A stretch of 64,000 bases of DNA from Raillietiella orientalis. Taxonomy: Eukaryota. The translations under genes and the position numbers were made by a program. The notes beneath the pieces were generated by a model. It had not been told where the DNA came from and ran no database searches. It saw nothing but the letters and a program-made list of their open reading frames with translations. Position 1 is the first letter of the stretch; each line of letters begins with the position of its first letter. Below are positions 19,621 through 61,665 of the stretch, piece after piece. The stretch covers positions 62,001 to 126,000 of the forward strand of contig JAYWIR010000010.1 in the NCBI GenBank assembly GCA_036172245.1, given 5' to 3'.

Positions 19621-19699
19621 TAATTTCATATTTAAACTGAACAAAACTTCAAATAATCATCATCAAATTTCCCTTTACCTTAATTAGTAATTAGCCCCC

Positions 19700-28069: not shown

Positions 28070-28163
28070 CGCTCTAGGGTGGACGTGTTTTCTCGGTGCT
28101 CCTCGTGCCAGGAAGTCTCCCCCAGTGCAAGCGTCGTGTGGTTCGGTGGTCGATCAGGCAGCG

Positions 28164-29470: not shown

Positions 29471-29561
29471 TTGGAGGACGTGTTTTTCCTTCACTCCCCA
29501 AAGAGTAGTAGGAAAGCGCTTTTTCTTCTGTGTGGTGTTTTGTGTACATCGTCGGTGTCCA

Positions 29562-31312: not shown

Positions 31313-34300
31313 CACCTGGGCTCGCCAGTCGCCGTCGGATTCGCGCGGCCTGTTGGAATATCAACGGGCTGCGCGACGACGGTAACAGGCGAGATACAGC
31401 TGACACCCTGCGGGAGTTCGACCTGGCCCTGTTGCAGGAGATCCACGTGATCACCGCGGCAGACGTCCAGGAGATCGAGACGATCGCGGGGGGTCGGCTG
31501 TACTGGCAATGCGGCATTCGCAACACCTGCGGGGTCGCGTTCTTCGTGAAGCCGGCCATCGACGCTGCCGTGAAGGGCGTGCGCTTCGATGACGACGGTC
31601 GGGTCGGTCAGCTGACTCTCGGCTGGTCGGACTCGATCGATCTGATCGTCACGAATGTGTACGCCCCCACCGGTCAAAAGGGATACAGCAACCGTACCAG
31701 GCTGCTTGAATCCTTGAAGCGCGACTGGCTGGCGAACACGAGCGTGCGGAAGGCTCACCTGATAGCGGGAGATTTCAATCTCCGCCTGCTAACAGGTGAG
31801 CCGGAAACACAGGTGAACGCGATGAACGAGTTGTGCGCCGCCATGCGTGCGCGCAACTTGTTCGCGGGTGAGGGGAATTGTCCGCAGCATCGACCACGTC
31901 TTCCTCGACGCTGACCTGTGTTCACGGGTCGGCAAACGGGGGAGGGTTGCGTCAACGTTGTCGGACCATTCCCGGTTAATTTTCGAGATGCGGCCTCGCG
32001 ACAAAGGACCGCCATCCAGAGACTGGCGTCTGCCGGGGGACTGGACGCGACTCTCAGGTGCGAAGGAACACCTTCGCGAATACCTGAGAGGCGTCACGCT
32101 CCGGAATCTCCAAGACTGGGACCTTTTCAAGGAATCGGTCCGGGAGTTCTGCGAGCAGTTCCCCCTGGACCGCCTGCCCTCCGGATTCGGCGAGGGTCCT
32201 CGCAACCATCGGGCCTATTTACAGGCCCGAAGGTACGAGCGAACCCCTAATGTCCGTCGCCTGGCCGAGTACCGCGCCGGGGCCGAACGCCAAGTCTGGC
32301 AATCCGGGTCGGCCAGCTTGCTGGACGACCAGGGCCGGGAATGTTCGTCCCCGGCGTCGGTACGGCATCTCGTGCGGAGTTATTATTCCTCCCTTTACGC
32401 CAGGGCGCCCCCGGATCAAGATGCCTCTCGGCTCTTGCTTCCGGATGGTGCTGCGGCAATAGGGGAGGAGGAGTCGTTAAGCCTCGATGAGCCTTTTACC
32501 ACCGGCGAAATTCTCGCCGGTATCAAAAGGCTCAAGAGGCGGAAAGCTCCAGGGGAAGACGGCTTGCCCGCGGAGTTCTATCAGAGCTTCGCGGAAGAGC
32601 TGGCACCCCTGCTGCTTCAGCTGACAAGGCTGATCCGAGACGAAGGCAATGTTCCCGCCTCGTTTCGGTCAGCCAGAGTGAGGCTCCTTCCGAAAGGGGG
32701 AGACCTTAGGAATTTGAACAACTGGCGTCCGATCACGATTGTGAATACGGACGCCAAGTTGGTTGCCGGGCTATGGGCTTCGCGTCTGGGGCAGGTGGCA
32801 GAATCCATTATTAGCCCGGAGCAGACATATGCTGTTCCCGGGCGAAGTATGGATGCCAACCTCTTCTTCGCGAGCACGTGGATGCACGCGCAGAGGTGTC
32901 AAAAGGAAGGAAAAGGAAAAATCGGCAACCCCACTTTGGGGCCGCCAGCAGGGCAGGGAATGGACTCCCGGGCGGGGAAGGGGGCCTTAGCGCTCGCAGT
33001 CGATCTCCATAAGGCGTTCGACTGTGTTGACCAGGGGCTTTTGTTGGAGCTCCTGGGTCGCATGGGCTTCCCACCCTCCTTGATCAACTACCTGCGCTCC
33101 TGCTGGCGCCATGCGATAATTTCCGTCTCTTTCAGCGGTCAGAAGGTGCATGGCGTGCCGGTGCGGCGGGGCATCAGGCAGGGAGATAGCCTGAGTCCCC
33201 TGCTCTTCAGCACCTACTTTGAGTTGGTGCTGAGAGCCTACAGGGTGACTTTGGCCTCCTTGCCTAGCTCGTGTCCTGGCACGCCCGCCGTAGCAGCCTA
33301 TGCCGACGACCTTCTGCTCCTGTTACCTATGTCCACCCCGGCGAAGGCGGTCGGAGACTTCTTCGATCTGCTCAGCCGTGGAACCGGACTGCAGGTCAAC
33401 AGGGCGAAGTCGTCGGTGGTGCCAGTAGGTGCGGCGTGGGCAGGGCAGCAGGACTGGGTCCGTCTGGGGATCCCCACGGCGAGGTGCATCAAGTACCTTG
33501 GTGTGCCGTTGGGTGACTACTCCCCTGCGGAAGCGTGGTCCAGCTGTCTTCAAAAAGTCGAGACGGCGATCGGCCCGTTCCTGGAAGGCAAGTTTCACTT
33601 GCCGGAACGGGCCGCGGTTTGGAACGCCTTCGCGGCCCCCATCCTCCGCCCCTTGCTTTTTGTTTGCCCCGCCACCAGAGAATGCAAAAAGAGGACGAAG
33701 GACCTCCTCCGCATCGCCCTTTGGGGCAAGGGGAGGCCCCGAGTCCCTCTGCAGGACTTGTGCGCTCCGCGTCGGGACGGCGGCCTTGGCCTCCTGACGC
33801 TGGAGCGCGTGGAAATGCAGCTGCGGTGGCGAACCCTCGCCATCGCAGCGAAGATGTGGAGCACCCCTTGGTGCGTTCCGGCCCGCCACCTCGCCAGGCG
33901 TGTGTCCCGATGCGAAGGACTCGCGTCGTTTCTTCTGTGCCCTGGCCGGAAGATCCGAAGATGCGGCCTTATGCTCGGACGCATAGCAACCTTGGCGAAG
34001 ACGAACGGTTGGATGGTTTGTGGCCCCGCCAACTCCTCCGCCTGGTTGGAGGAGTCTGCTGGCACATGGGCTAAGCTGAACCGGAGGAGCGAAAACCACA
34101 TGAACTGCCTGCGAATCGGCCCATACGCCAACCGCACCCTGCGGGAAATACTGGAATTTCCTCGGAGTCGCAGCTGGGCGTTGACGACCCCCCTTGCTAC
34201 GGCGATGCCCTACCTCCTGAGGGCGCTTCAGGATTGCCAGAAGCCGAGGTGGCAAGTCACCTGCCAGATCGCAGGCAGGGAGAAGATGTTACGCGGCTGG

Positions 34301-34906
34301 ACCACAGGAGAACTGGCGGACGCCACGACCCCGAGCGTCCAGCCGCGTGGACTAATGAGATGGGGCGAGCTGCTCGCCATCCCTACGGATGTGCTGAAGT
34401 GGCCCCCGGTACTGAAGGAATCCAGGATCCTGCCCCTTAAGTGGCAAGAGTCGGCGTTGCTTTTGTTGCACTGGGGTCTACCCTGCAACGCGCGCCGCTT
34501 CCACTGGACGAGGGGAGCTGTGGATCCTTTGTGTGCCAGGTGCGGGGAGCGGGAGTCGCTTCCCCACCTTATTGTGGATTGTGCTGCCATCCGACCCCTC
34601 TGGGAACGGTTCGGGGCGACCCTAGGGCTCCCTACGGGCAGCACCCCCAGAGACGTTCTTCGGCCCCTCTTCGGGAAGGACGCACTGCAGCCAGCCGCAG
34701 CCATCGCAGCCTTGTGCTGTGTCCGTGGCATCGTGGCGGCATGGAGCGACGCCAATAACGAAGGAGTGGGTCCACACGCGAGGGATGTCGTCCCATACGC
34801 CCAACGCTTCATGCGGAGAGCTGCCGGATGGCCCCAACTGGGGAATATACGGACGGACCTCGAGGGTTTCCTTCAACGGATGGGCCCTCCTCACAGCGTT
34901 CAGTGA
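31312..34906 (+). CDS. Element B ORF2: APE, RT, zinc finger (one frameshift near 31870)
   Basis: WNING, LQE, NVYAP, AGDFN, IDH, SDH; KAPGEDG, WRPIT, DLHKAFD, GIRQGDSLSP, YADD, KYLG; CARCGERESLPHLIVDC. Confidence 0.95.
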
Positions 34907-35505
34907 TCCCTTCCCTGCCCTCCAACTTCTTTTTGTCTGTTTATGTTTTTTATTTTTCTTTTTGTTTTATCCCCATCCCCCTTCGCTGCTGAGGAACGCT
35001 ACGCTGGGCTGCGTCCCGGCGTCCCGGCAGGTCCAGTGCATATGGCCGTGAGCGGGGCCTTGTACCGCGGATGTAGAGATGTTTTTTTAAAAAATAAACG
35101 CCCCGGGCGTACCCGGGTGTAAACCTCCAAGGCTGGCAAGAAGGCCGTAAGGCGTCCGGCCTCCCCTCAGGAGTCCCCCACTTCCGACCCCGAGGTGGAG
35201 GCCGGAAGCGCAGCCTCCGTTTCTACGGCACCGCGCAAGAAGGCTGGACGTAAGTCCACAAAGCCAAGGAAGCTCGTCTCCCCCGTCGAAGGGGAAGAGA
35301 TGGCTTCCGCAAGCGAGGGTGCCATGAGCGTGGGAAACTCTCGGGACCCGTCGCCCGAGAGACTCCCACGCACGGACACGGAGGGGATGGAGGGGGTGGA
35401 GGCCGAACAGGTGCCTCAGGTGCCTGAGAAGGCCGAAACCCCCATGGACATCCCGCCCGCCTCGAAAGAGGAGGGCTCCCCCACACCTTAATCTTCCCAG
35501 CAGTA

Positions 35506-38500
35506 ATGCCGGGAATCTCCTCCCGCCGTCGTCTGCGCATCGCCGTTTGGAACGTGAACGGCATGACAGACGCCGGCAGGAGACGAGACATGGCCGCCCT
35601 TCTGGAGTCCTACGACCTTGCGCTGCTGCAGGAGATCCACGTGATCTCTGCAGAACAAGCGCAAGAGATCGAACGGATCTCCGGAGGGCGGCTATGGTAC
35701 AGGTGTGGGAGAGCGAAAAGTTGCGGTGTCGCCTACCTGCTTCGGCCAGCCGTCGACGCCGCGGCTCGGGGCGTGCGGTTCGACGATCACGGTCGTGTCG
35801 GCCAGCTGACTCTCAGGTGGTCCGACTCGATCGATCTGATCGTCACGAACGTGTACGCACCGAGCGGCAAGGACCTGATGAACAGGAGGGCGAGGAAAGA
35901 GTTTTTCCTTGCCCTCCGGCGAGACTGGCTGACCGAAGCAGGCGTGTGGAATGCCCATCTGGTTGCAGGCGATTTCAACGTTCGCCTGAAACCAGATGAG
36001 CAGAATCCCGAGCGTGACCTGGTCAACGAGGTGTGCATGGCGGTGCACACCTGTAATCTGTTGGCCAGTGCACCGGGGATGGAAGACAGCATTGACCACG
36101 TGTTTCTTGACGAGCACCTGTGCCCTCGCGTGGGCAGGCGCGGCAAGTTACCGTGCGAGCTGTCCGACCATCGCCCGCTAGTCCTCGAGATCCATCCGCG
36201 CGACAGGGCCCCCCCCTCGTCAGCGTGGCGTCTCCCAGGGGACTGGCTGAAGCTCCCGGACGCGGCGGAACATCTCCGCACGTTCATACGGAGCTTCAGT
36301 CTGCGGACACTCCAGGATTGGGACCGCTTCAAGCGGTCGGTCCAGGAGTTCTGCGACCAGTTTCCTCTGCACCGCCTACCTACGGGTTTTGGGACCGGGG
36401 TCCGTAACGAACGAGCCTACCTGCAGGCCCGTCGTTACGCCAGGACCCCCGACATCCGCAGGCTGGCGGAATACAAAGCGGGAGCCGAGAGGCAAGCCTG
36501 GCAGTCCGGATCGGCCAGCTTACTGGACGATCAGGGCCACGTGCACTCGGCACCTGCCCAAATCCGCGGCCTGCTGCGGAGTTACTACTCCTCCCTGTAT
36601 GCCAGGGCACCTCCGGAGAGGAACGTCTCACGACTCCTGCTTCCGGAAGGCACTCCAGCGATCGGGGAGGAGCAGAGAAAGACCCTCGACGAGCCTTTCA
36701 CGATGGACGAGATCATCTCGGCCATCGGAAAGCTCAAGAGGCGAAAGGCTCCAGGGGAGGACGGCCTGCCCGCGGAGTTTTATCAAACTTTCGCGGCTGA
36801 GCTTACCCCCCTGGTACAGCAACTCACCTTGCTGATACGCGAAACAGGTGACGTTCCCGCCTCGTTTCGTTCGGCAAAGGTGCGGCTCCTCCCTAAGGGA
36901 GGAGATCTGAGGAGCATGACCAAGTTGCTAGCAAAGGTTTGGGCAGAGCGTCTGGGACGGGTTGCCAACATCTTCATCAGCCCGGAACAGACATATGCTG
37001 TTCCCGGGCGAAGCATGGAGGCGAACCTGTTCCACGCTTCCACCTGGCTAGAGCTCCAACATGAAAGGAGCTTGGTGCGCAGACGGAATTCCGGTGCGTG
37101 CGCCGGCAAGAAGTTGGATGGTCGGGTGGGGGAGGGAGCCCTTGCGGTCGCAATCGACTTGCGGAAAGCATTCGATTGCGTCGACCAGAATCTCCTTCTG
37201 GAGCTTCTGGAACGCTTGGGCTTCCCGGCCTCATTAGTGGCCTATCTGCGCTCCTGCTGGCGCGACGCGCTCATCAATGTTACTTTCAGCGGGCAGACGG
37301 TGCACGGCGTGCCGGTGCGGCGTGGGATCCGGCAGGGAGACAGCCTGAGCCCCTTGCTCTTCAGTACCTACTTTGAGTTGGTACTGAGAGCGTACAGGGG
37401 AACTCTGGCGCACCCTGCCGCACGACTGTGCCGGTACGCCGGCCGTTTCAGCATACGCGGACGACCTTCTGCTGCTGCTCCCTATGTCCACCCCGGCTGC
37501 GGCGGTCGAGGAGTTCTTCGACCTGCTGCATCGGGGAACCGGACTTACGGTGAACAGGGCGAAGTCGTCCGTGATGCCAGTTTGTGCGGCGTGGGCAGGG
37601 CAGCAGGACTGGGTCCGTTTGGGGATCCCCACGGTGAGGTACTTCAAGTACCTTGGTGTGCCGTTGGGGGACTACTCCCCTGCGGAAGCGTGGTCCGGCT
37701 GCCTTCAAAAAGTAGAGACGGCGATCGGCCCGTTCCGAGGCGGCAGGTTTTTCCTGCCTGAACGGGCCGCGGTTTGGAACACGTTCGCGGCTCCTCTCCT
37801 CCGCCCCCTGCTTTTTGTTTGCTCCCCCACAGAGAGGATTAAAAAGCGGACAAAGGACCTCCTCCGTATCGCCCTTTGGGGCAACGGGAGGGCCCGAGTC
37901 CGCTTAAAGGACTTGTGCGCTCCTCGTCGGGATGGTGGTCTGGGCCTCCTGACACTGGAGCGGCTGGAGCTTCAGCTCCAGTTCCGCTTGTCGGCACTCG
38001 TTCCAGAGTTGTGGTGCACCTGTTGGTGCGTCCCTGCACGTCTCCTTCTCCAGCAAGCCACCGGCAAGACGGGACTGACGTCGTTTCTTGCACTCCGTCG
38101 CCGTGTCAACCGATGCGGACTCCAGCTACGGAGGGTGGCTGCGCTGTATCGGAAAAACCCAGGATTGCTCACCTGTCGCCCGTTTAACGGTAGTGCCTGG
38201 TTGCAGGAAACCGTTCGAACGTGGGGACGGTTCGGCATGCAACGCTCCCAACAGGAACGAAGGTTCCTGTTTGGGGGTTACAGAAGTTGCACGCTCCGCG
38301 AGATCCTGGAGGATCCAAAGAAGAGAGCGTGGGCAGGAAGAACCCCCCTCGCTGCTGCGCTGCCCTCCCTGATGGAAGATCTGGACAGCGATGTTGCGGC
38401 GAAGTGGGTGGTTACAGTAACAATCTCCGGAAAGGAGAAGAAGATAGGAGAGTGGAAGACAAGCCAGTTAACAGACGCTGCGACCCCGAGTACGCCTCCC

Positions 38501-39052
38501 AATGGACTTCTGCGCTGGGGCGCGCTGCTCGATGTTCCCATTGAACATCTGAAGTGGCCCCCGGTGCTCATGAACACTTCCGCCCTCCCCTTAAAATGGC
38601 AGGAGTCGGCTCTCCTGTTGCAGCACTGGGGACTCCCCTGCAACGCCCGCCGACACCACTGGACCTGGGGAGCGGTGGACCCCAATTGCGTCAGGTGCGG
38701 GGAATGGGAGTCCCTCCCCCACCTGCTAGTGGATTGTGTTGCCCTTCGGCCCCTTTGGTTTCGCTTTGCCGCGGCCATCGGAATCCCCTGCGGCAACCCC
38801 AGGGACGCACTGAAAGCCCTCTTCGTTGCCGACGCCCTTCGGCCAGCGGCCTCTTTAGCAGCTTTGTGCTGCCTACGCGGGATCGTCACCGCTTGGAGCA
38901 AGGCTACGGGAGGACAACGCGACCAGGGTGCCATCCAGCCAGCTTCCCAGTTCCTGAGGAGGGCGTCCCGATGGCCCCACCTGGATCCAGGAATACAGAA
39001 GGAGCTTGCCGGCATCCTGCAAAGGATGCAACGGCCCCACCAGCAACTGTGA
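35506..39052 (+). CDS. Element A ORF2: APE, RT, zinc finger (short deletion near 36918, frameshift near 37415)
   Basis: Same APE/RT/zinc-finger motif series across ORFs 35506-37761 and 37484-39052. Confidence 0.93.
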
Positions 39053-39258
39053 TCCCTTCCCTTACCCTCCCAACTTTTCTTTTCTTTTTTGTTTTTCCCC
39101 CTTCCCCCTGCTGCCGTGGTGGACCGTACCGGTCTGCGAACCGGTGACCCGGCAGGCTCTGTGTTTCTTCGTGCGTGGCTGGAGCAATGGTCCAGCCACC
39201 GCACGTCTTTGTAAAAGTTTATTTTACAATAAACGCCCCGGCGAAATCCAGGTGAAAA

Positions 39259-40140
39259 TCGAACGCCTTATGGAGATCGACTGCGAGCGCTAGGGCCCCG
39301 TTATCCGCCCGGGGGTCCTTTTCCAGATCGGCTGGCGGCCCTGAAGTGGTGCTGCCGATTTTCCCTTTCTCTTTCTTCTGTCTCCTCTGCAGGTGCATCC
39401 ATGTGCTTGCGAAGAAGAGGTTGGCATCCATACTTCGCCCGGGAACAGCATAAGTCTACTTCGGGCTAATTATGGATTCTGCCACCTGCCCCAGACGCGA
39501 AGCCCAAAGCCCTACTAGCAACTTGGCGTTCACGATCGTGATCGGACGCCAGTTCTTTAAATCTCTGAGGTCTCCCCCTTTCGGAAGGAGCCTCACTCTG
39601 GCTGACCGAAACGAGGCGGGAACATCGCCTTCGTTTCGGATCAGCCTTATCAACTGAAGCAGCAGGGGTGCCAGCTCTTCCGTGGAGCTCTGAAAGAACT
39701 CCGCGGGCAAGCCGTCTTCCCCTGTAGCTTTCCGCCTCTTGAGCCTTTTGATACCAGCGAGAATTTCGCCGGTGGTAAAAAGCTCGTCGAGGCTTAACAT
39801 CTCCTCCTCCCCTATTGCCGGGATACCATCCGGAAGCAAACGCCGAGAGGCATCTTGATCCGGGGCGCCCTGGCGTAAAGGGAGGAATAAAAACTCCGCA
39901 CGAGATGCCGTACCGACGCATGAAACGAACATTCGCGGCCCTGGTCGTCCAGCAAGCTGGCCGACCCGGATTGCCAGGCTTGGCGTACGGCCCCGGCGCG
40001 GTACTCGGCCAGGCGGCATACGTTAGGGATTCTCTCGTAACGACGGGCCTGTAAATAGGCCCGATGGTTGCGAGGACCCTCTCCAAATCAAGGGGGCAGG
40101 CGGTCCAGGGGGAGCTGCTTGCAGAAATCCCGGACCGAAG
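39259..40140 (-). mobile_element. Tx1 element C, 5' part of RT (5'-truncated)
   Basis: KATGEDGLPAEF, WRPITIVN and LAVDLHKAFD ending at the 3' end of element A. Confidence 0.9.
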
Positions 40141-48642: not shown

Positions 48643-49015
48643 CATAGGGCGTTCGACTGCGTGGACCAGAATCTCCTGTTGGTGCTCCTGGGTCGCATGG
48701 GCTTCCCTCCCTCCCTACTGACCTACCTGTGCTCTTGCTGGCGCAGCGCGCTGATTAATATCTCTTTCAGAGGTCAAATGCCGTACGGCGTGCCGGTACG
48801 GCGGGGCATACTGCAGGGAGACAGCCTTAGTCCCCTGCTCTTTAGCACCTACTTTGAGTTGGTGCTGAGAGCGTACAGGGTGACTTTAGCCCCCTTGCCG
48901 AGCTCATGCTCCGGCACGCCAGCCGTAGCAGCTTATGCCGACGATCTTCTGCTCTTGTTGCCGATGTCCACCCCGGCGAAGGCGGTCGGAGGTTTCCTCG
49001 ATCTGCTCAACCGTA
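48643..49015 (+). mobile_element. RT fragment that is the target of A'
   Basis: AFDCVDQNLL..QGDSLSP..YADD. Confidence 0.88.
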
Positions 49016-51036
49016 GGACAACGCGTCAATCAATATTGGTTTGAGCGGCCGGCACGTGTACGGCCTGCCCGTACGCCGCGGCATCCGGCAGGGTGACAGC
49101 CTGAGCGCCTTGCTCTTCAGCATCTACTTTGAGTTGGTGCTGAGGGCATACAGGGTAACTCTGGCAGCCCTGCCGAGCTCGTGTGCCGGCACGCCTGCCG
49201 TGTCGGCCTATGCAGACGATCTTCTGCTGCTGCTTCCCGGGTCCACCCCGGCGAGTGCACTCGAGGACTTCTTCGAGTTGCTGCGCCGCGGGACGGGCCT
49301 GGAGGTGAACAGGGCGAAGTCGTCCATGGTCTTCGTCGGTTCGGCGTGGGCTGGACGGTCGGACTGGATCCGCTTGGGGATCCCCACGGGCAGGTGCTTC
49401 AAGTACCTCGGCGTACCGTTGGGGGACTTCTGCGCAGCAGAAGCCTGGTCCGACCGTCTCCAAAAGGCAGCGTTGGCGATCGGTCCGTTCCAAGAAGGCA
49501 AGTTCTACTTGCAGGAACGGGCCGCGGTGTGGAACGCGTTTGCGGCTCCCCTCCTTCGCCCCCTACTTTTTGTTTGCCCCGCCCCTTATTTTATTCGAAA
49601 ACGAGCAGCGGGCCTCCTGAGGACAGTCCTTTGGGGCAAAGGGAGGTCCCGTGTGAGGCTCAAAGACTTGTGCGCTCCACGTAAGGACGGTGGACTTGGC
49701 GTACTTACGCTGGAGCGCATGGAACTGCAACTTCGATTCAGGACTCTCGCCTTTGCGGCAGAATTGTGGGACACGCCTTGGTGCGTTCCAGCACGCCTTC
49801 TGGCCCAACGAGCCTGCGGAATCGGCGGACTCTTGTCGTTTCTGTCTGCGCGCGTCTGCAGAAGACCATACTGTGGCTCTATGCTGCGACGCATCTTGGT
49901 TGCGGTTCGGGAGAACGCCTGGATCTCCTGCCTCCCAGGGAACTACTCCGCCTGGTTGCACGAGTCAGTTTCCACCTGGGAAAAGATCCACGTTCCGGCG
50001 GGCACAAGGAACACTTGTATGAAAAGGCACGCCCGCTGGACGCTGCAGGAGATCGTGCAGTCCCACGACAAGCTTCTGTGGGCCTTGATAACCCCCCTCG
50101 CCCCAGTGCTGCCCTTCCTTGTGAATGCCAGGGACAGTAGCGAGCAGGGGAAATGGACCGTGTCCTGCACTATAGGCGGCAGGACACAATCGATAAAGGC
50201 GTGGACATCTTGGCAGCTAGCTCACGCTGCGACGCCGAGTGTCCCGCCCAACGGAATTCAACGCTGGGGCGAGCTACTCGGACTATCTCCGGAGGAGATG
50301 AAGTGGCCCCCAGCGTCCTGGAACAGTGCATCCCTCCCCCTGAAATGGCAGGATGTGGCGTTGCTTGTGGTACTCTGGGGATTACCATTCAAAGCACGCC
50401 TGCACCACACCACCCGGGGGGCTGTGGATCCCAATTGTGACCGGTGTGGGGAAAAAGAAACATTCCCCCACCTTCTCCTTGGATGTAGCGCCCTCCGCCC
50501 TTTGTGGGATCGTCTCGCGGCGATCCTGGACTTGCGCGGATGCGGCCCAAAGGACGTTTTCAGGCGCCTCTTCTGTAGTGACGCCTTGTCCCCGCCCGCT
50601 AGTGTAGCAGTACTCTGCTGCACCAGAGGAATAGTGGCGGCTTGGAACGCCACCAGAAGAAGGCGCCAGCCAACCGGCAACGCCTTACACTGGACTCGCC
50701 TTTTCGCGCGCAGTGTCAGCAAGTGGCGCCACTTGGGCGCTGAAAGGACTCAGCTTGTGCGGATCCTGAATAGGATCTAGAGGACCTTTCCACGCGCACC
50801 GTGATCCCTTCCCGGCCCTCCCACCCCTACAACATTTGTTCCCTCCCCCACATTTGAACTTTTTGTTTCTTTTTGTTTTCCTTTATTTCCCATCCTCGCG
50901 CATCGGAAGGACCTCTCCGGCATGGAGTCGGTAACCAGCAAGCTGTTTTGGAGTGGTGAACCTTCGAGTTCGCCACGCGATATTTCATGTATTTTTATTT
51001 CCAACAAATAAATGCCCCGGCACATCCGGGTGTGAA
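49016..51036 (+). mobile_element. Tx1 family F, 3' half (element D)
   Basis: ORF 49041-50780 covers RT to zinc finger; near-identical to 58375-60380; 3' motif at 51007-51036. Confidence 0.93.
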
Positions 51037-51048
51037 TTGCGACGGCGC

Positions 51049-52277
51049 TCCTGAGAGGGTGGACGTGCTTTTGTGGTGCTCCGCGTTTTTCTCGCGAGTG
51101 TTTTCGGAGTTTTCAGGTTTGAGCGGTTGTTCCTGGGCAGGGATGCCCGAGGACGCCGCAAAGACGGCGGAGGGGGGCGAGCGAGCCTCGTCCCCCCAGC
51201 CCATGGATGTGGGGGCCATCTCCCCCACGGAATCGTCCCCCGCCCCGGCGAGGGCTTGGAGCGCGGTGGTGGCGGCGCCTGCGCCGCCCCCCGCAGAGGA
51301 ACAGCGGGCTTACATGGCCGACGGGTATAACCCGGCCTTGTTATACAAGGTAGGTGGCCTGTACTCCCCCGCGGTATTACGGTCTTTCGCGGCCGAGTTC
51401 AAAAAATTAAAAGTCCCGGAGGACGAAGTCCTCGGACTTTCGGTTAGGAGTGGCGGGCAGCTGGTTGAGCTGAACTGCAAGTCTGCAGGGATGGCTCAGC
51501 AGCTGCTCCGCCTGCCGGTGACCGTGAACGGTCGAAGAATCTTCCCGTTCACGGCGGACAACTCCATCGTTGTCCACCTCACCGGTATTACGATGAGAAT
51601 GGCTAAGACCGCCGTTCGCGAAAGTTTGGAGAAGTTCGGGACGGTCCACGCGTTGTGGGCAAAACCCAATGTCCTGGGTTACACCAGGGCATTCAGTGGT
51701 TACGCCGCTGCGCGCGTGACGGTACGTGCCGAGGGTGGGCTACCCCACAGACTGCAGGTCGGGGAGGAGGAGATCGACCTGTGGTATGCGGGGAAACCCG
51801 TATACTGAGGCTTTTGCCAGGTGTCGGGGCACCTGAAGAAGAAATGCCCCAACATCGTGTGCTTGGGCTGCGGCGGAAAGGGGCACATCAGGCGGATGTG
51901 CCCCAACAGAAAAAGGTCAGTTCCTACAGGCGCGAGGAAAGCAGACACGCCGAAGGAACAGGACCGGAGCCACGAAATGGCAGAAACCCACCCTGCCGAC
52001 CAACCCGCTGCTCAGCCATCCTCCAGCGAACAACCAGCTGGAGAAAGCGCCGAGAATGAGGAAGGTTGGCAGAAGGTGGAGAAGAAGAAAAAGGCGCCGA
52101 AGAAGGAGGTCAAACGGATCAACAAGGCGGCACCGCTGAAGAAGAAGCAGGTGATCCGCGCTTGTTCGGTGAAAATCGAACGCGTATCGGTCATAAAAAC
52201 CGCGGAAAAAATAGCGGTAAAACCGATCGATACCGTCGAATCCGCGCCGATCGCGCCCGCCGTGACGTCACCGCGGT
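51049..52277 (+). mobile_element. Tx1 family F, 5' part with partial ORF1
   Basis: 5' motif at 51061; ATG at 51143; stop codon in the first knuckle. Confidence 0.88.
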
Positions 52278-52365
52278 GAGTGGACGTGTTTTTTCGGTGC
52301 TCCGGAAAACCGTCTGTTTTTGCTGGTGTTTGTGGGTTTTTCAGCGCGGTTGTTCCTGGGCAGAA

Positions 52366-54111
52366 ATGCCTGAGGACGCCGCTAAGGCGGTGGAGGGGGG
52401 CGAGCGAGCCTCGTCCCCCCAACCCATGGATGTGGGGGCCAGCTCCCCCACGGATTCGTCCCCCGCCCCGGCGAGGGCTTGGAGTGCGGTGGTGGCGGCG
52501 CCCGCGCCGCTTCCCACAGAGGAACAGCGGGCCTACGAGGCCCACGGATACAACCCGTCCCTACTCTATAAGGTAGGTGGGTTGTACTCGCCGGTAATGC
52601 TCCGCACGTTCGCCGCGGAATTTAAAAAGTTGAGAGTGCCCGAAGAAGAAGTTCTCGGCCTCTCCGTGCGCAGTGGCGGTCAGCTCGTCGAGCTGAACTG
52701 CAGAACTGCAGGAATGGCACAGCAATTGCTGAGATGCCCGGTGACTGTGAACGGGAGAAGGATTTTCCTGTTCACAGCCGACAAATCCATCGTCGTCCAC
52801 CTCACGGGCATAACGATGAGGATGGCAAAGAACGCCGTACGAGCAGAACTCGAGAAATACGGCACCGTCCACGCTCTGTGGGCTACGCCCAACACCCTGG
52901 GTTATACCAGGGCGTTCAGTGGCTATGCCGCCGCGCGTGTGACGGTCCGAGAGGGAAGTGGTTTACCCCACCGACTGCAGGTGGATGATGAATACATCGA
53001 CCTGTGGTACATAGGGAAACCAAAATTTTGTGGAAATTGCGAGGCCATCGGGCACCTCAAACGGAGGTGCCCTAACATCGTGTGCCTCCGATGTGGTACC
53101 AAGGGACACGTACGAAAGGTGTGCCCTTCTCGTTTTGCGTCCACTCCTGCTGGCAACAAGAAAACCGAGTCGCCACAGGTGCAGGACAAACAGCATCCCC
53201 CATCGGGTGAAAGCTCGCAAGCAGGCGAGAAACCGACGCCGGAGGAAGAAAAGGCGGAGAATGGCGAAGCTGTCGCCGAAAACAGCTGGAAGTTGGTGAA
53301 GAAAAAGGAGAGCAAGGGGAAAGGTACAGCCCCCAAGAAAACGGTAAAAACGGTGGCGAAAAGCGTCCGTCGTTCCACCGTAAACATCGATCGCTTTACC
53401 GCGAAGGCTTCCTCCAGCAAGCCGTCGATCGATACCGCAGCTGCAACATCGATCGATAGAGCGGTTCCGGCCCCGTCCACCGAAATCGCTACGGTAGCGA
53501 TCGATATCGCGGCACCTGTTGCCAAGATCGATACTATTGTTCCAGTTCCGTCCGCTGGAAGTGTTGTAGTGGCGAGTGAAAGCTCAGCCGCTGCTGTTCC
53601 GATCGATAGCCCGCCGGTTGCGGCTATCGATTCGGCAGTGACGTCACCGGACTCGCCAACAGGCGGCGAAGTCTGCGATGACGCGGAACGCATCTCCAAT
53701 GCAACGTTCGCGCAAGCCGCGGAAGAGTTGGCTGCCTTGTTAAGGCAGCCCGTCAAGGCCGAGAAGAAAGCCGTTCGACGCCCGGCTACGGCGAAGGACC
53801 CAGAAAACAGCGAGTCCGACGCCGAAACCAAGAACTCGTCGACCGTAGGGTTGCCGAAAAGAAAAAATAAAAGTTCAACGGGAGCTCGTAGGCGTGCTGT
53901 CCCCACTCAGGTAGAGGTGGAAATGGCATCCGACAGCGAGGAGGAGTCAATGTGCGTTCCAGCGTGCGACTCTGCGCCTGAGAGCATCCTATTCCAACTG
54001 TTGACACAGTCCTCGGCCGACGGAGCACACCAAACTCCTTCCGAATCCGTCGGCGTGGACGCGGAACACCCGTTTCCTGAAAGGGAGACGGTTTCCTCCA
54101 CACCACCATAA
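52366..54111 (+). CDS. Element F' ORF1 (uninterrupted)
   Basis: CGNCEAIGHLKRRC and CLRCGTKGHVRKVC. Confidence 0.9.
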   Translation: MPEDAAKAVEGGERASSPQPMDVGASSPTDSSPAPARAWSAVVAAPAPLPTEEQRAYEAHGYNPSLLYKVGGLYSPVMLRTFAAEFKKLRVPEEEVLGLSVRSGGQLVELNCRTAGMAQQLLRCPVTVNGRRIFLFTADKSIVVHLTGITMRMAKNAVRAELEKYGTVHALWATPNTLGYTRAFSGYAAARVTVREGSGLPHRLQVDDEYIDLWYIGKPKFCGNCEAIGHLKRRCPNIVCLRCGTKGHVRKVCPSRFASTPAGNKKTESPQVQDKQHPPSGESSQAGEKPTPEEEKAENGEAVAENSWKLVKKKESKGKGTAPKKTVKTVAKSVRRSTVNIDRFTAKASSSKPSIDTAAATSIDRAVPAPSTEIATVAIDIAAPVAKIDTIVPVPSAGSVVVASESSAAAVPIDSPPVAAIDSAVTSPDSPTGGEVCDDAERISNATFAQAAEELAALLRQPVKAEKKAVRRPATAKDPENSESDAETKNSSTVGLPKRKNKSSTGARRRAVPTQVEVEMASDSEEESMCVPACDSAPESILFQLLTQSSADGAHQTPSESVGVDAEHPFPERETVSSTPP

Positions 54112-55825
54112 ATAAACCTATGGGTGGGCTCGCCTGCTGCCGTCGCTTGCGAATTACTTGTTGGAACGTCAACGGGTTGAGCAACGACGGCGAGAGGCGA
54201 GACGTAGCCGCCATACTGCGAGACTTCGACCTGGCTCTACTGCAAGAGACCCACGTGCTCACAGCAGAGGCAGGCCAGGATTTCGAGAGGATCGCAGGGG
54301 GCAGGCTACTGTGGAGGAACGGAACAGATCACTCCTGCGGAGTGGCCTTTTTGCTGAAGCCGTCCGTCGAAAACTCACTGCGTAGTGCACGGTTCGACGG
54401 GGACGGTCGAGTTGGGCAGCTTGTTCTCAAGTGGTCCGACTCGATCGACCTCGTGGTCATGAACCTGTACGCTCCGGTGGGCAGCCACAGGGCCGAGGAA
54501 CGCACTGCGTTCTTCGAATCCCTGCGGCGAGACTGGTTGGCCGAAGCAGGCGTGCGAAGGGCGCACCTCATTGCGGGCGATTTCAATCTCCGCCTGCTGG
54601 CAGGTGCGCCCAACCGACGAGCACAGCTGGTCAACGAGTTGTGCGCAGCAATGAATGCGCGCAACTTGTTGGCCGGTGATGCCGGGAGAGATCGGAACAT
54701 CGACCACATGTTCCTCGACAACCACCTGTGCACGCGGGTGGGAACTCGAGGAACGCTCCCGGCAGAGCTGTCCGACCATCCACGGCTCGTGCTCGAGTTA
54801 CATCCGCGCAATAAGGGCCCTCCCCTGAAAACATGGCGCCTGCCAGGGGATTGGTTGCGCCTCGAAGGAGCGGCGGAACATCTACGCTCCTTCCTGCGAG
54901 GATTCCAGCTTCAGACGCTCGCGGACTGGGACGAAATGAAGTGCTCAGTCCGCGAGTTTTGCGACCAGTTTCCCCTGGAACGTCTTCCGCCGGGCTTCGG
55001 CGATGGGGTCAGGAACGAGCGGGCCTACCTTCAGGCCCGCCGGTATTCCAGGCGTCCCGACGTCCGTCGCTTGGCGGAATTCGAAGCTGAGGCGGAGAGG
55101 CAGGCCTGGCAGTCAGGCTCGGCCTGCTTGCTGGACCATCAGGGCCAAGAACACTCCAGCCCAGCTCAGGTAAGCCGCATCGTGCGGGAGTTTTATTCCT
55201 CCTTCTACGCGCCGTTAACACCGGAGCGCCATTTAGCGCAGCGCCTGCTGCCGGATGGCCTCCCCGCGCTCAAGGAGGAGGATCGTTTCAGGTTGGCAGA
55301 ACCGTTCACGATGGTGGAGGTCGTCTCCGCCATCAGCAGGCTGAAGAATAGGAAGGCACCAGGGGAGGACGGCCTGCCCGCGGAGTTTTACCATCGCTTC
55401 GCGCCAGAGCTGGCCCCCCTGGTGCTCAGGTTAAGTACGCTGATCCGCGAACACGGCGAAGTTCCCGCCTCGTTCCGGTCAGCAAAAGTATGTCTCCTGC
55501 CGAAGTCAGGAGACTTACGCAACATTGGCAACTGGCGTCCCATCACAGTGGTGAATGCGGACGCAAAGTGCATGCCAAGTTGTGGGCTGAGCGTTTGGGG
55601 CGGGTGGCCGCTTCCGTGATCAGTCGGGAGCAGACCTACGCTGTTCCCGGACGAAGCATGGAGTCAAACCTGCTCCTCGCCAGCACATGGTGGCAGTTGC
55701 GACAACGCGTTGCCCAGGAAGGTCAAGGGAGTCTTGCGCTCCCCTCTGACCAGGAACATCGGATAGAGGGTGGGAGGGACTCGGCGGAACCTTTGCAGTC
55801 GCGGTCGACTTGCACAAAGCATTCA

Positions 55826-56479
55826 AATCCAATGGCAAACCTACAACTCAGAAATTGGCAAATGGACATACTTAAGATCATCAGAACCACACCAGACGAA
55901 AGGAAAATATACTGGTTCTATGACCCAGTAGGAGGAATCGGCAAAACCACTTTCGCCAAATTCCTGTACCTTAAAAAATCAGCAATCTACATGCGCAGCT
56001 GCAAGAAAGCTGATGCAGCACACATTTATCATGGCGAAAGGATCATAGTTGTAGACCTGACAAGAGACAACCAAGAAATAATTCAATATGGATTCATAGA
56101 GACATTGAAAAACGGAATCATCTTCGATTCCAAGTATCAAGGTTCCATCAAATACTTCGAGCCTCCACACATACTAGTCTTCAGTAACTGGGAACCTGAC
56201 TACTCCAAGATGTCCAGTGATAGATGGATTGTCAAGAACATAAGCAAATCCGAACCAACCAAATTGTGTCCATGGATGATTGATGACACAGGACTCGTGC
56301 TCCCTTGGGCCTGCCCTTCAGGCCCTAGTACAGGGCAGTCCCGAGACTCACCCGACTCCTCATGCTCCACTTTGTCACCCCCTCGCCAGAACTTGATAAA
56401 TAAAAATACATCCCATTGCAAGTTTTGCATTTTTCAAGTATACAGGGGAGGGTCTCTTAGATGTTTGAATTCCACATAA
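55826..56479 (+). CDS. rep: Rep C-terminal SF3 helicase half
   Basis: Walker A DPVGGIGKT, Walker B IVVDLTR, motif C VFSN, Arg finger SSDRW; motif style resembles nanovirus/alphasatellite-like Reps. Confidence 0.93.
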   Translation, partial: NPMANLQLRNWQMDILKIIRTTPDERKIYWFYDPVGGIGKTTFAKFLYLKKSAIYMRSCKKADAAHIYHGERIIVVDLTRDNQEIIQYGFIETLKNGIIFDSKYQGSIKYFEPPHILVFSNWEPDYSKMSSDRWIVKNISKSEPTKLCPWMIDDTGLVLPWACPSGPSTGQSRDSPDSSCSTLSPPRQNLINKNTSHCKFCIFQVYRGGSLRCLNST

Positions 56480-57459
56480 AACGTTCGAGTCAGTCTATAA
56501 ATAGGCCAACCCTGAGTTAGCCTTCCGTTTTTAGGACATACACCAGACTGACATCCTTCCCTTATCGAATCTGGAATATCCACACCTGACATATGCTTCA
56601 TTACATGCATACGATTCATAAACATTTCCACCAGCAACTCTTGATCCAAACGAGAACCAAAACCACAATCAACCCAAGGACAACGCACATAGCGCTCCAA
56701 ATTCCCTCCATAACAATGCATATCCTTCCTTATATACGCCCTGGAATACAGCCGTATTCCACGAACACCAAAATAACGAACTAAACATCCGCTCGTCTCC
56801 TTATGACCACTTATCACATCTTCCACCTTGTGATAAGGCATTCCTGCAAGCGATCCAAAAAATTCACCCTGATTGTGCGACTGATACAATAAAAGATTCC
56901 GATAAGACACTTTCATTCCAAACTCTTCCGCCATATTTCCTATCGTTAAACCCAAAGACAGCGGTTCGATCTTCATAGACATTCCACGCAACCGCACATA
57001 TCGGTAATAACGACCAAACTCTTGCAAATTCAACTCAGTCAGTATACTTTGCAGATTTCCAGCACTCTCACAATACGTAAACATCCAAGAGCAATTTACA
57101 TAATCCCCGTCAGCGGACCTCAAAGACGCATAATGCTGCGCATTTAACATTATATCACGCGATACCACGCGCCTCGCACGAGACAAACGACCACGCGGAC
57201 TCCGATACAATCGCAAACGCCGACGACGATTATACGGACGTCTACGCTTCTTGAAAGTCGAATAGCCAGTGCGAGCTACACGCCTACGCTTCCCAGTTAC
57301 ACTCGACGACTTCACGCGAAATCGCTTACGACCGCGACTGAGCAGCACGTGCAGCCATCTCACCGGTCGACCTTCAACTGACGTCACCCATCCCCTTCCC
57401 CCGTATACTCCTACTCTGGCGGGTGCGCGCGCACCCGTCCGACTTACTAAGCCTTCCAC
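56434..57459 (-). CDS. cap: Putative capsid protein (start codon uncertain)
   Basis: Open frame of 341 codons; Arg-rich N-terminus (KKRRRPYNRRRRLR); C-terminal FYVEFK; opposite strand to rep. Confidence 0.85.
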   Translation of the reverse strand: MEGLVSRTGARAPARVGVYGGRGWVTSVEGRPVRWLHVLLSRGRKRFRVKSSSVTGKRRRVARTGYSTFKKRRRPYNRRRRLRLYRSPRGRLSRARRVVSRDIMLNAQHYASLRSADGDYVNCSWMFTYCESAGNLQSILTELNLQEFGRYYRYVRLRGMSMKIEPLSLGLTIGNMAEEFGMKVSYRNLLLYQSHNQGEFFGSLAGMPYHKVEDVISGHKETSGCLVRYFGVRGIRLYSRAYIRKDMHCYGGNLERYVRCPWVDCGFGSRLDQELLVEMFMNRMHVMKHMSGVDIPDSIREGCQSGVCPKNGRLTQGWPIYRLTRTFYVEFKHLRDPPLYT

Positions 57460-57600
57460 GAGGTCGGATCATGCCACGACCTGCACACGTGGACAAGTAC
57501 ATCTTGTTCCGCATTCCTAAGTCTTCCACGACTGCGGACGAAGACCAGACACCCTCATAAAAAACTTGCAACATCGACACAATTTCCAAGGTTGTGCCCT

Positions 57601-57632
57601 ATGCAATCTGGGTAATACTAACCAGATTGCAT
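57601..57632 (-). promoter_or_regulatory. Rolling-circle origin stem-loop
   Basis: 11-bp stem ATGCAATCTGG/CCAGATTGCAT; loop reads TAGTATTAC on the minus strand (57612-57620). Confidence 0.95.
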
Positions 57633-57716
57633 CTATTGCGCAGTTGGTGAGTATTTATACCGCCACACATTGAGGCACAAACCAGTCTCACCTCGACAGA
57701 ATTACCTGCAGTAACC

Positions 57717-58270
57717 ATGCCTTACGGACACTTTCTCTACTGGTGTTTTACATTGTGCAACTACCTCGAAGAACTGCAACAGATCAAGGATTGGTGCAGA
57801 CGACAATGCACATACGCCGTCATCGGAAAGGAAACAGCCACAACGGGTACACCACACCTCCAAGGCTATTTCCAATTACGCGATCCACGCACCTTGCCAA
57901 GCCTTAAACGACCTCCGTTCGAGAAAGCCCATCTCGAACGAGCAAAAGGATCTCCGCAGAGCAACTTACGGTACTGCACGAAAGAGGACCACCAAGCATG
58001 GACATACGGTCTAATTCAAGACCACAAAGAAACCACAGACTACCAGGACATGGTAATTATTTTATTCACAATAAAAAAAACTAATAATTTACTATATTCC
58101 AGATACTCCAACTCATAAAAAACGGAGCCACTGAGCTCGACATACTCGAACAACACACAAAATTTTATTCAAAAAATATCAACTTTGTCAAGGAGTGCTT
58201 CCGTTTAACAAGGAGCAGAACACATCCTAATCCCATGTACGATTTACAACTCCAGAACTGGCAAATGGAC
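57717..58270 (+). CDS. rep: Rep N-terminal HUH endonuclease half with a 50-nt intron (58053-58102)
   Basis: Motifs CFTLCN, PHLQG, YCTK; removing GTAATT..CTAAT..TTCCAG restores the frame to ILQLIKNG..NWQMD. Confidence 0.9.
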
Positions 58271-60380
58271 TGGCGTCGATGTCAGACTGCGTCGACCAGG
58301 AACTCCTTTTGGAGCTCCTGGAACGCATGGGTTTCCCGGCAGTGCTCCAGTCCTACCTGCGCTCCTGCTGGCGCAACGCGTCAATAAATATTGGTTTCAG
58401 CGGCCGGCACGTGTACGGCGTGCCAGTGCGCCGCGGTATCCGGCAGGGTGACAGCCTGAGCCCCTTGCTCTTCAGCATCTACTTCGAGTTGGTGCTGAGG
58501 GCATACAGGGTAACTCTGGCAACCCTGCCGAGCTCGTGTGCCGGAACGCCTGCCGTGTCGGCCTATGCAGACGATCTTCTGCTGCTGCTTCCCGGATCCA
58601 CCCCGGCGAGTGCGCTCGAGGACTTCTTCGAGTTGCTGCGCCGCGGGACGGGCCTGGAGGTGAACAGGGCGAAGTCGTCCATGGTCTCTGTCGGTTCGGC
58701 GTGGGCTGGACGGTCGGACTGGATCCGCTTGGGGATCCCCACGGGCAGGTGCTTCAAGTACCTCGGCGTACCGTTGGGGGACTTCTGCGCAGCAGAAGCC
58801 TGGTCCGACCGTCTCCAAAAGGCAGCGTTGGCGATCGGTCCGTTCCAAGAAGGCAAGTTCTACTTGCAGGAACGGGCCGCGGTGTGGAACGCGTTTGCGG
58901 TTCCCCTCCTTCGCCCCCTACTTTTTGTTTGCCCCGCCCCTTATTTTATCCGAAAACGAGCAGCGGGCCTCCTGAGGACAGTCCTTTGGGGCAAAGGGAG
59001 GTCCCGTGTGAGGCTCAAAGACTTGTGCGCTCCACGTAAGGACGGTGGACTTGGCGTTCTTACGCTGGAGCGCATGGAACTACAACTTGGATTCAGAACT
59101 CTTGCCCTTGTGGCGGAATTGTGGGACACGCCTTGGTGCGTTCCAGCACGCCTCCTGGCCCAACGAGCCTGCGGAATCGGCGGACTTTTGTCGTTTCTGT
59201 CTGCGCGCGTCTGCAGAAGACCATACTGTGGCTCTATGCTGCGACGCATCTTCGTTGCGGTCCGGGAGAACGCCTGGATCTCCTCCCTACCAGGGAACTA
59301 CTCTGCCTGGTTGCACGACTCAGTGTCCACCTGGGAAAAGATCCACGTTCCGGCGGGCACAAGGAACACTTGCCTGAAAAGGCACGCACGCTGGACGCTG
59401 CAGGAGATCGTGCAGTCCCACGACAAGCTTCCGTGGGCCTTGATAACCCCCTTCGCCCCAGTGCTGCCCTTCCTTGTGAATGCCAGGGACAGTAGCGAGC
59501 AGGGGAAATGGACCGTGTCCTGCACCATAGGCGGCAGGACACAATCGATAAAGGCGTGGACATCTCGGCAGCTAGCTGACGCTGCGACGCCGAGTGTCCC
59601 GCCCAACGGAATTCGACGCTGGGGAGAGCTACTCGGACTATCCCCGGAGGAGATGAAGTGGCCCCCAGCGTCCTGAAACAGTGCATCCCTCCCCCTGAAA
59701 TGGCAGGATGTGGCGTTGCTTGTGGTACTCTGGGGATTATCATTCAAAGCACGCCTGCATCACACCACCCGGAGGGCTGTGGATCCTAATTGTGACCGGT
59801 GTGGGGAAAAAGAAACATTCCCCCACCTTCTCCTTGAGTGTAGCGCCCTCCGCCCTTTGTGGGATCGTCTCGCGGCGATCCTGGACTTGCGCGGATGCGG
59901 CCCAAAGGACGTTTTCAGCCGCCTCTTCTGTAGTGACGCCTTGTCCCCGCCCGCTAGTGTAGCAGTCCTCTGCTGCATCAGAGGAATAGTGGCGGCTTGG
60001 AACGCCACCAGAAGAAGGCGTCAGCCAACCGGCAACGCCTTACACTGGATTCGCCTTTTCGCGCGCAGTGTCTGCAAGTGGCGTTACTTAGGCGCTGAAA
60101 GGACTCAGCTTGTCCGGGTCCTGAATAGGATCTAGAGGACCTGCCCACGCGCACCGTGATCCCTTCCCTGTCCTCCCACCCCTAAAACATTCGTTCCCCC
60201 CACAACTTTTTGTTTCTTTTTGTTTGTTATTTCCCATCCCCGCGCATCGGAAGGACCTCTCCGGCATGCAGCCGGTAACCAGCAAGCTGTTTTGGAGTGG
60301 TGAACCGTGGGGTTTGCCACGCGACATTTCCTGTATTTTTATTTCACTGAAATGAATGCCCCGGCACATCCGGGTGTGAA

Positions 60381-61665
60381 TCGCCACGGCGCGCTTCACC
60401 ATGGACGACCGGAGGCTCATGCCTTCGCAGATCCTCCTCGGTGACGTCGTCGTCTATCTGCGGTTTGCCGGACAAACCCCAGCTTGCCGCAACTGCGGGA
60501 AGGAGGGCCACCGTCCGCGGAAGTGCCCAACACGCAGTTGCCGATACTGTAAGCTGCTCGGCCACTCGATTAACGAGTGCGCCTAGGTAAAACGAAAGAG
60601 GGCGAGAAACCCGCGAAAGGCAAGCCGGCCACGGCGAGCCGAACGGCGGCAAAGGCTGAAAAGCCTCGCGCGATCTCAAAGGATCCCGCCACTCTGCTTG
60701 CACCTTCCGGTAAAAAGGTGCAAAAGGCAGCAGTGGCGACGGACGCACTGGCCGCCATCGCCGCATCGGAGGCCTTGGAAAGGATGCGGAGGACCCTGGA
60801 AGCCCTCGCGCCCAACCGAGGCAAACCGGAAGGCGGCGAGGATGGATTCGTCGGGGGAAGGAAGAAGGAGCGCAAACCGCGCGATCCTTCCCACTTCCCC
60901 ATTATAAAGGTAGGCGGGGTCAAGAGGCAGCCTCGCGCGCCAAAGAAGGCGCAAGAAAAAGCCTCCGCTGCCGTCGCGCGCGCCGTCGCAAACACCCGCG
61001 GCGAGAGGGCAGCTGCCGACGCCGCGACTCCGAAAGGGGGAACGGCGACGAAGGCACCCTCCGAGAATGCTGGACCAGCTCCGAATTGCCAGCAGAAGAA
61101 GAGGCAGGCGAAACGCCCGCCGCACGCGCGGAATTCGGACTTCGAGGTGGAGTCCGAAGGCAGCGCTCGCCAAGCCCCGGTCAAGGCCAGGGCTGCGCGC
61201 AAGCGGAAACTTGCCAGGCAAGAGCCTGATGCCGGGAACGGTTCCCGATGCTCCTCGGAGCCCGAGGCAATGGTCCTCGACTCCACCGAACCAGCCGCGA
61301 GCGGCGCGGAGGAGACAGGAAGCGCTTGCGTTCCCCCATCCGCCGTGCTCCCGGCTGATGCCTCGCCGGACGGGGCGAGGAACGCGCCTCCATGTCCGTA
61401 GCAGCAATGCGCGGTCTCGCTTCTTGTCGTGGCGTCCGAGTGGCCTGTTGGAACGTCAACGGGCTGCAGTACAATGAGAAGAGGCGATTGGTTGCCAACG
61501 TCTTGCGCGACTTCGATCTGGCCCTGCTGCAGGACATTCACGCACTCTCCGAACAGCAAGCGGCCGATCTGGCAGTTCGTGCAGGCGGGACGCTCCATTG
61601 GAGGTCAGACTCCTAGAATACCAGCGGAGTAGAATTCCTAGTCCGGGACAGGTTGGCGGGGGAAT
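60381..61665 (+). mobile_element. Family E-like element: 3' part of ORF1 and APE start (target of family F)
   Basis: CRNCGKEGHRPRKC, CRYCKLLGHSINEC, WNVNG. Confidence 0.88.

Follow-up and report, generated by a model that had tools for sequence, protein, structure and literature searches.

The window analysed here is a stretch of 64,000 nt from Raillietiella orientalis (contig JAYWIR010000010.1, positions 62,001 to 126,000 of the forward strand; coordinates below are those of the window). In it, a decayed Tx1-like long interspersed nuclear element (LINE), designated copy F', is interrupted by what looks like a real, young-seeming and nearly complete endogenous copy of a new lineage of circular Rep-encoding single-stranded (CRESS) DNA virus. 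The insert, 2,460 nt long (55825-58284) and AT-richer than the LINE around it, splits the reverse transcriptase (RT) motif KAFD exactly at the boundary of its F and D codons. Its structure gives good support to capture at the DNA level, as opposed to retroposition of an mRNA, and its two ends differ to such an extent that two viral templates must, on this comparison, have contributed to it. The insertion point is 2 nt away from the nick predicted for another LINE family of the same window, family A, a nearness that is a hint, not proof, of the route by which the virus entered. The host element and the insert are laid out as follows.

52060 to 55824, plus strand: 5' part of LINE copy F', with the open reading frame (ORF) 1 (52060-54111), an apurinic/apyrimidinic (APE)-type endonuclease and the RT up to K-A-F (Exo_endo_phos domain, translations, tblastn).
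55825 to 58270, plus strand: virus-derived DNA, one circular CRESS-DNA unit of 2,403 nt plus an overlap of 42 nt, linearised inside rep (domain, homologue, repeat and GC analyses).
58271 to 58284, plus strand: 14-nt filler TGGCGTCGATGTCA (sequence, match trials).
58285 to 60392, plus strand: 3' part of F', with the RT from the D of KAFD to the 3' end, made of a hairpin and GGGTGTGAAT (RVT_1 domain, copy identity).

Both borders of the insert could be placed to the base. The RT of F' reads ...GCAGTCGCGGTCGACTTGCACAAAGCATTC up to 55824, where the protein ends with A-V-D-L-H-K-A-F, and resumes with GACTGCGTCGACCAGG at 58285, encoding D-C-V-D-Q-E-L-L. Four other RT copies of the window read straight through these codons, as ...AAGGCGTTC followed directly by GACTG, and therefore no host base was deleted or duplicated around the insert. 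The GC content changes from 0.60 to 0.30-0.48 precisely at both borders. No target-site duplication (TSD), poly(A), LINE tail or LINE-derived bases were found at either viral junction. When compared with the rest of the window, the insert matched only itself, and it is the sole non-LINE DNA found within a nest of LINEs of about 38 kb.

The host copy is identified by two domains of its second ORF, the endonuclease (Pfam Exo_endo_phos PF03372, E 4.6e-14) and the RT (RVT_1 PF00078, E 3.6e-13), and its 3' part is 95.3% identical to a copy at 49019-51048. The last 280 nt or so ahead of the left junction require more than one reading frame in three-frame translations, so F' is already decaying.

The viral nature of the insert was established from its rep gene, which is split between the two ends.

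57717 to 58052, plus strand: N-terminal part of Rep, an HUH endonuclease with the motifs CFTLCNY, PHLQG and YCTK (PF02407 E 2.1e-16, alignment).
58053 to 58102, plus strand: AT-rich segment of 50 nt (20% GC) with GT..AG ends, which shifts the rep frame, by way of an intron or of decay (sequence, frames, GC).
58103 to 58270, plus strand: linker part of Rep, ending in the right copy of the terminal overlap (frames, repeats, alignment).
55826 to 56479, plus strand: C-terminal half of Rep, a superfamily 3 (SF3) helicase with the Walker A motif GGIGKT (PF00910, seven homologues, alignment).

The N-terminal part matched the Viral_Rep domain with 60.4 bits, against a cutoff of 26, and its three HUH motifs line up with those of homologues, so that the Rep motifs appear intact in the alignment. 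The match of the helicase coding part (55826-56250) to the RNA_helicase domain was closer to the threshold (22.6 bits, slightly over the cutoff of 21.5). This half was 34-41% identical to seven Rep proteins (E 4e-29 to 2e-20), all of which sit on CRESS contigs of about 2 kb, one of them labelled Cressdnaviricota sp. The rep frame stays open for about 77 codons past the point where all seven homologues end (56250-56479). This 3' extension crosses a GC-rich stretch, with 63% GC in one 60-nt window, and no match to host sequence was found in the 64-kb window for the stretch from 56290 to 56400.

When the helicase half alone was used as a query against viral contigs, no relative was detected, and with a small alignment as the query 53 related viral loci were recovered. 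Most of these measure 2.0-2.8 kb, a range that includes the 2,403-nt unit of the insert. Thus, as read from the sequence, architecture and unit length fit a complete genome of this Rep clade. Joining the N-terminal part to the helicase requires that the 50-nt segment be spliced out or read through. We consider it slightly more probable than not that this segment is an intron, the alternative being that the frame has decayed. The two halves of Rep could be paired in 40 of the 53 relatives, and all 40 encode them in a single frame, open throughout in 37, so that introns do not characterise this clade.

Two further elements are expected in such a genome, a capsid gene and an origin of replication, and candidates for both were found, together with a pair of repeats.

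56434 to 57468, minus strand: capsid-like ORF, open over 344 codons (57468-56437), with an arginine-rich N-terminal part (position, composition, sub-threshold Circo_capsid match, Atlas).
57438 to 57538, strand not assigned: two hairpin-forming direct repeats of 31 nt, 70 nt apart (57438-57468 and 57508-57538; repeat families D2 and D3).
57601 to 57632, minus strand: origin stem-loop, with an 11-bp stem and a 10-nt loop, carrying the nonanucleotide TAGTATTAC at 57612-57620, on the strand opposite rep (fold z -3.1).

The origin is the clearer of the two. CRESS origins are recognised by the nonanucleotide NANTATTAC exposed in a stem-loop, and the loop of the insert displays TAGTATTAC. Only one in 200 shuffled sequences folded as stably, and the structure is located between the starts of rep and cap. 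Its strand is also that of its relatives: in 40 of the 53 loci the origin lies opposite rep and just upstream of it, as in the insert, and in two it is on the rep strand. A simple scan found no origin stem-loop in the remaining 11. Capsid identity is only weakly backed, by the position and arginine-rich composition of the ORF, by a match to Circo_capsid that stays under the cutoff (18.2 bits, E 0.0033, against 36.2), and by Atlas, a comparison of language-model features, which assigned the ORF to Cressdnaviricota clusters at 0.96 (216 of 256 features). No homologue was detected by a word-indexed search (none scored among 4,379 candidates), by phmmer against 1.84 billion representatives (no match), or by tblastn against the 53 related loci (nothing below E 1). 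The single-sequence AlphaFold model was too poor for use, with a predicted local distance difference test score of 30.4. The cap frame has no ATG ahead of its arginine-rich part. The 31-nt repeats, each a hairpin of the TCCGAC...GTCGGA type, occupy the intergenic stretch that separates the cap start from the origin, and may serve as Rep-binding or regulatory elements.

The extent of the viral DNA could be deduced from its two ends. The left copy of the terminal overlap (55826 to 55867, plus strand; codons N-P-M-A-N-L-Q-L-R-N-W-Q-M-D; repeat family D1, Rep alignment) and the right copy, which makes up the last 42 nt of viral DNA (58229-58270), encode the same 14 residues of Rep, just ahead of Walker A. 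Both align to a single block of columns, L..WQ, of the homologues, and they are spaced 2,403 nt apart. As rep is split across the ends and both copies fall on one block of Rep, the insert consists of one circular unit plus 42 nt.

The two copies are identical at 31 of 42 nt only, a point that had not been raised when the stretch was first read. The 11 differences (26% divergence) affect six codons, three of them by a single synonymous change. Decay after insertion was considered as their source and rejected, given that the cap frame is open over 344 codons and that both halves of rep are open. Such a density of mismatches not being explicable by decay, the ends must derive from two different, related viral templates. 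Of the eight longest of the 53 loci, six, on five contigs (L014, L028, L033/L057, L036 and L045), are tandem arrays, with a unit size of 2.0-2.6 kb and units 68-92.5% identical to each other; the other two have 100% identical terminal overlaps, as is usual for circular assemblies. Mixed multimers therefore exist in this clade, and the diverged arrays may be replicative or integrated forms, or may have arisen in assembly.

The right junction, in turn, bears the trace of a repair event. The heptanucleotide GCGTCGA within the filler recurs in the adjacent flank, at 58289-58295. Moreover, the last three viral bases, GAC (58268-58270), together with the first nine bases of the filler (58268-58279 in all), reproduce the opening 11 nt of the right flank with a G added, and the filler ends, after this near-copy, with the five bases TGTCA. 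Among 20,000 random 17-mers, 49 matched either flank as well. No longer match to the filler was found anywhere else in the window, and its match of 8 nt with the minus strand of the virus was within chance. At the left junction, the end of the host sequence shares at most a weak similarity of 4-5 nt with the viral bases that precede the entry point, and we gave this no weight. The right junction is thus shown, by sequence comparison, to carry a filler copied from the adjacent flank. Locally templated fillers are typical of polymerase-theta-type end joining, or of a polymerase that switches templates. End joining is recognised by the lack of long homology at the junction and by filler copied from nearby, and both are seen at the insert. 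The sequence-only reading of this stretch had reported the interruption of the RT at 55824/58285 without host deletion or TSD, which the sequence and the four uninterrupted copies bear out; it had also noted the 14-nt filler with its GCGTCGA, a resemblance that now extends to a 12-nt near-copy.

Capture at the DNA level follows from four observations: the insert is longer than one circular genome unit, it has genes on both strands, it has an intergenic origin, and it has no poly(A), LINE tail or TSD. Retroposition of an mRNA is ruled out by the first three, and a canonical, target-primed insertion of the LINE type is not supported, given the absence of a TSD and of a LINE or poly(A) tail. The earlier reading had reached the same conclusion, in part on other grounds. 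Its argument from ambisense genes and an origin is upheld as far as the origin and the frames on both strands are concerned, the cap identity being weakly backed. Its argument from a retained rep intron is weak, since every one of the 40 paired relatives is unspliced.

The site at which the virus lies is also a target of LINEs. Family A has entered the KAFD-coding stretch of the RT of related LINEs, in antisense orientation, at the following places.

28056 to 28069, minus strand: upstream TSD copy (14 nt) of a family-A insertion into the KAFD of another RT, the 5' end of A starting from 28070 (junction comparison).
39259 to 39272, minus strand: downstream TSD copy TCGAACGCCTTATG, the LINE 3' end ...GGTGAAAA stopping at 39258 (junction comparison).
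48643 to 48656, plus strand: TSD copy of a second family-A insertion, in minus orientation with its 5' end at 48642, at the same RT site (junction comparison).

The first two TSD copies are identical at 13 of 14 positions. On the RT-sense strand the duplication reads CA[T/C]AAGGCGTTCGA, coding for H-K-A-F-D(GA), and the predicted priming nick is on this strand, after TTCGA. The two A copies are 91.6% identical (1094/1194) and the RT flanks next to them 84.7% (309/365); the copies being more alike than their flanks, they represent separate insertions and not one duplicated block. Family A thus appears to be site-specific, which is supported by two independent events at KAFD in the window (n=2 only). 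Seven RT copies contain the site or its right half: four are intact, two abut the 5' ends of family A, and one carries the virus. The block between the first two TSD copies (28070-39258, 11 kb) is complex, and includes a 5' part of A, a full-length LINE and a 5'-truncated LINE.

Site-specific LINEs are well known in the Tx1 clade, with Tx1L inserting into Tx1D, and with Keno, Kibi, Koshi, Dewa and Mutsu. Like these, family A has an APE-type endonuclease, uses one defined sequence in a multicopy target and generates a fixed TSD. It differs from them in its target, the KAFD-coding stretch of the RT of related LINEs in antisense, and in that two events only are available. Keyword searches of open-access text returned no report of a LINE targeting the RT of other LINEs, and none of a CRESS virus inserted at a site that LINEs target.

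The viral junction falls between TTC and GAC, and the nick between TTCGA and C, that is 2 nt apart, as the sequence-only reading had also seen. The probability that a random insertion hits within 2 nt of the nick inside the 5,633 nt of F' is 0.0009. We give a little less than an even chance to the following account, in which the break in F' was made by the family-A endonuclease and the virus was taken up by end joining. The endonuclease would have broken or nicked the F' RT at KAFD. The donor would have been a piece, slightly longer than one unit, of a multimeric and mixed viral replicative form. Joining would have proceeded by end joining of the microhomology and template-switch type, and neither by viral Rep nor by reverse transcription of an mRNA.

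Several points weigh against this account. It relies on a single case, and the insert is linked to the endonuclease by its position alone. The 14-nt footprint that the staggered cut of family A leaves is missing at the viral insert, and the viral junction does not coincide with the nick but lies 2 nt away. Of 27 positions around the site, 4 in the F' target differ from the two targets that family A has used. LINE RT sequences are plentiful, and so offer random insertion a large target. Lastly, the one public sequencing run yielded only short contigs, none of which crosses either viral junction. The earlier reading had put forward LINE-on-LINE targeting as an entry point for virus sequences. 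The part of it that stands is that KAFD is a LINE target, with its two family-A insertions; the part naming the endonuclease as the cause draws on one coincidence, with the 14-nt stagger unseen.

It is also conceivable, to a lesser degree though far from negligibly, that the viral DNA was integrated at a spontaneous break, with no LINE endonuclease involved, and that the 2-nt proximity is coincidental. The lack of TSD and of LINE-derived bases at both junctions would be natural in that case, as would a junction lying 2 nt off the nick. Furthermore, the coincidence was noticed post hoc, among several recurrent LINE junctions of the window, and in a region that is nearly all LINE any insert lands in a LINE. 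The chance calculation speaks against it: from about 0.0009 within F', the probability still remains below about 0.01 when several notable sites are allowed for.

Another mechanism that retains the LINE nick, and that we regard as unlikely, is nick-primed copying. The LINE nick would have yielded a 3' end which, after the loss of 2 nt, primed synthesis by the LINE RT or by a repair polymerase, with circular single-stranded virion DNA as the template. Copying would have gone on for more than one round before the new strand rejoined the unbroken host strand at GAC. In the host, the RT-sense strand continues into the rep-sense strand of the virus, so the template would have been the TAGTATTAC-bearing strand, which from rolling-circle replication we take to be the packaged one. 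Return to an unbroken template would explain why no host base was lost or gained, the copying of more than one unit is accounted for, and the filler looks as if copying of the host template had at first been started and then abandoned. However, a single circle should give identical ends, and 11 of the 42 nt differ, so that a second template is needed; a matching orientation alone has even odds, and there is no LINE tail. If it were true, the LINE machinery would offer single-stranded DNA viruses a direct route to become endogenous, resembling target-primed reverse transcription.

We then considered whether the insert could be an assembly or library artefact, a read from free virus or from a contaminant having been joined to LINE reads. 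One public sequencing run was listed; it shares 0.14 of the sampled words and may be the assembly's own sample. No RNA run was listed among the public runs sharing sampled words. Two contigs of the run lie inside the virus, at 57204-57395 and 57635-57861, and show no difference from it, the uncovered viral parts being uninformative. Contigs with loose ends at 55824 and 58285 proved to be uninterrupted paralogous copies of the LINE, not empty alleles. The lack of independent reads or contigs across either junction, together with the repeated nature of the flanks, leaves some room for an artefact. Against it, the two junctions join up perfectly at one and the same host dinucleotide, host sequence on the far side of the insert would not be regained in a chimeric read, and the right junction has a templated filler of the repair type. 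In addition, run depth on exact viral pieces was 3-5, well under the 10-50 found on the LINE flanks, unlike what abundant free virus would give. We therefore hold an artefact to be very improbable.

Integration by the viral Rep, a nicking-joining enzyme whose motifs are intact here, is hardly credible and was rejected, because the viral ends lie inside rep, about 1.75 kb and 0.65 kb from the nonanucleotide at 57612-57620, and the host site is unlike the nonanucleotide.

End-joining capture of viral DNA has experimental precedents. Adeno-associated virus vectors and hepadnaviral DNA are captured by end joining at breaks made by I-SceI, with small fillers and microhomology. The insert in F' resembles these cases in that extrachromosomal viral DNA would have been end-joined into a chromosome, with a small filler. 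The differences are that I-SceI capture was an experiment in cultured cells, whereas here the endonuclease would be a natural one of a LINE, and the product is found in an assembled genome.

Endogenous viral elements (EVEs) made of whole CRESS genomes are already known, and it is the virus lineage that is new here. Whole-genome EVEs of kriko­viruses/Draupnirviridae occur in saurian and insect genomes, where 17 of 36 Cap-like EVEs are paired with Rep (PMC10193959). As in the elements treated in that part of the article, Rep and, here, a putative Cap stand together at one host locus and a whole circular genome was integrated as DNA. The present insert departs from them in several respects: the proteins found for its Rep share only 34-41% identity with it, and its putative Cap has no sequence homologue in the searches made; its frames, unlike those of the old elements treated there, are almost free of stops; its site and both junctions are legible to the base; and its ends overlap with 26% divergence. 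Rep sequences of the CRESS type are widespread in chromosomes across eukaryotes, although integrase activity is not known for circular single-stranded DNA viruses (Liu et al. 2011, PMC3198968). The elements covered in the part of that study drawn on here are mostly fragments of Rep, in contrast to the whole genome in F', and no insertion mechanism or site preference is given in that part.

The finding thus bears on how circular single-stranded DNA viruses without an integrase enter eukaryotic chromosomes. The junctions of a nearly undecayed whole-genome insert display break repair in which the filler was templated and the donor of mixed origin, at a sequence recurrently cut by a LINE endonuclease. 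If foreign DNA were in excess at this RT site genome-wide, site-specific nicking by LINEs would become a concrete entry point for viral DNA; short of such a count, the insert is one endogenous virus of a new lineage, if a well-documented one. A metagenome scan with the RT alignment of the window gave seven loci at 23-30% identity, too distant for inserts at KAFD to be compared.

The surroundings of the insert show how densely LINEs have accumulated. From about 25.9 kb to its end, the window consists of nested, related LINEs that are rich in GC (about 60%) and carry ORF1, an APE-type endonuclease and an RT. The closest named LINE proteins were vertebrate ones of the Tx1 type, at 25-30% identity, and one metagenome protein reached 68%; F' and family A are accordingly best described, on these comparisons, as Tx1-like LINEs of the L1 superfamily. 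Three LINE 3' ends (35124/35125, 51038-51050 and 60392/60393) share a conserved short hairpin and GGGTG..AA, and each leads directly into another LINE of the same strand, either at its start or within its body. Template jumping or a second target preference may account for these head-to-tail joins.

Other irregularities were noted in the nest. A single frame of 1,057 codons (27990-31163) spans two different copies of ORF1, first an A-type 5' part and then that of a full-length LINE. At 48655-49019, an RT fragment begins at the KAFD site and ends after 365 nt; it is followed, at 49020-51048, by a 5'-truncated LINE, 95% identical to F', that restarts 89 nt past the KAFD site, so that about 275 nt of RT are present twice. 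No tandem repeats were found in positions 1-26000. Segments 1-7000 and 19001-20000 have a GC content of 27-29%, beside the 60% of the LINE nest.

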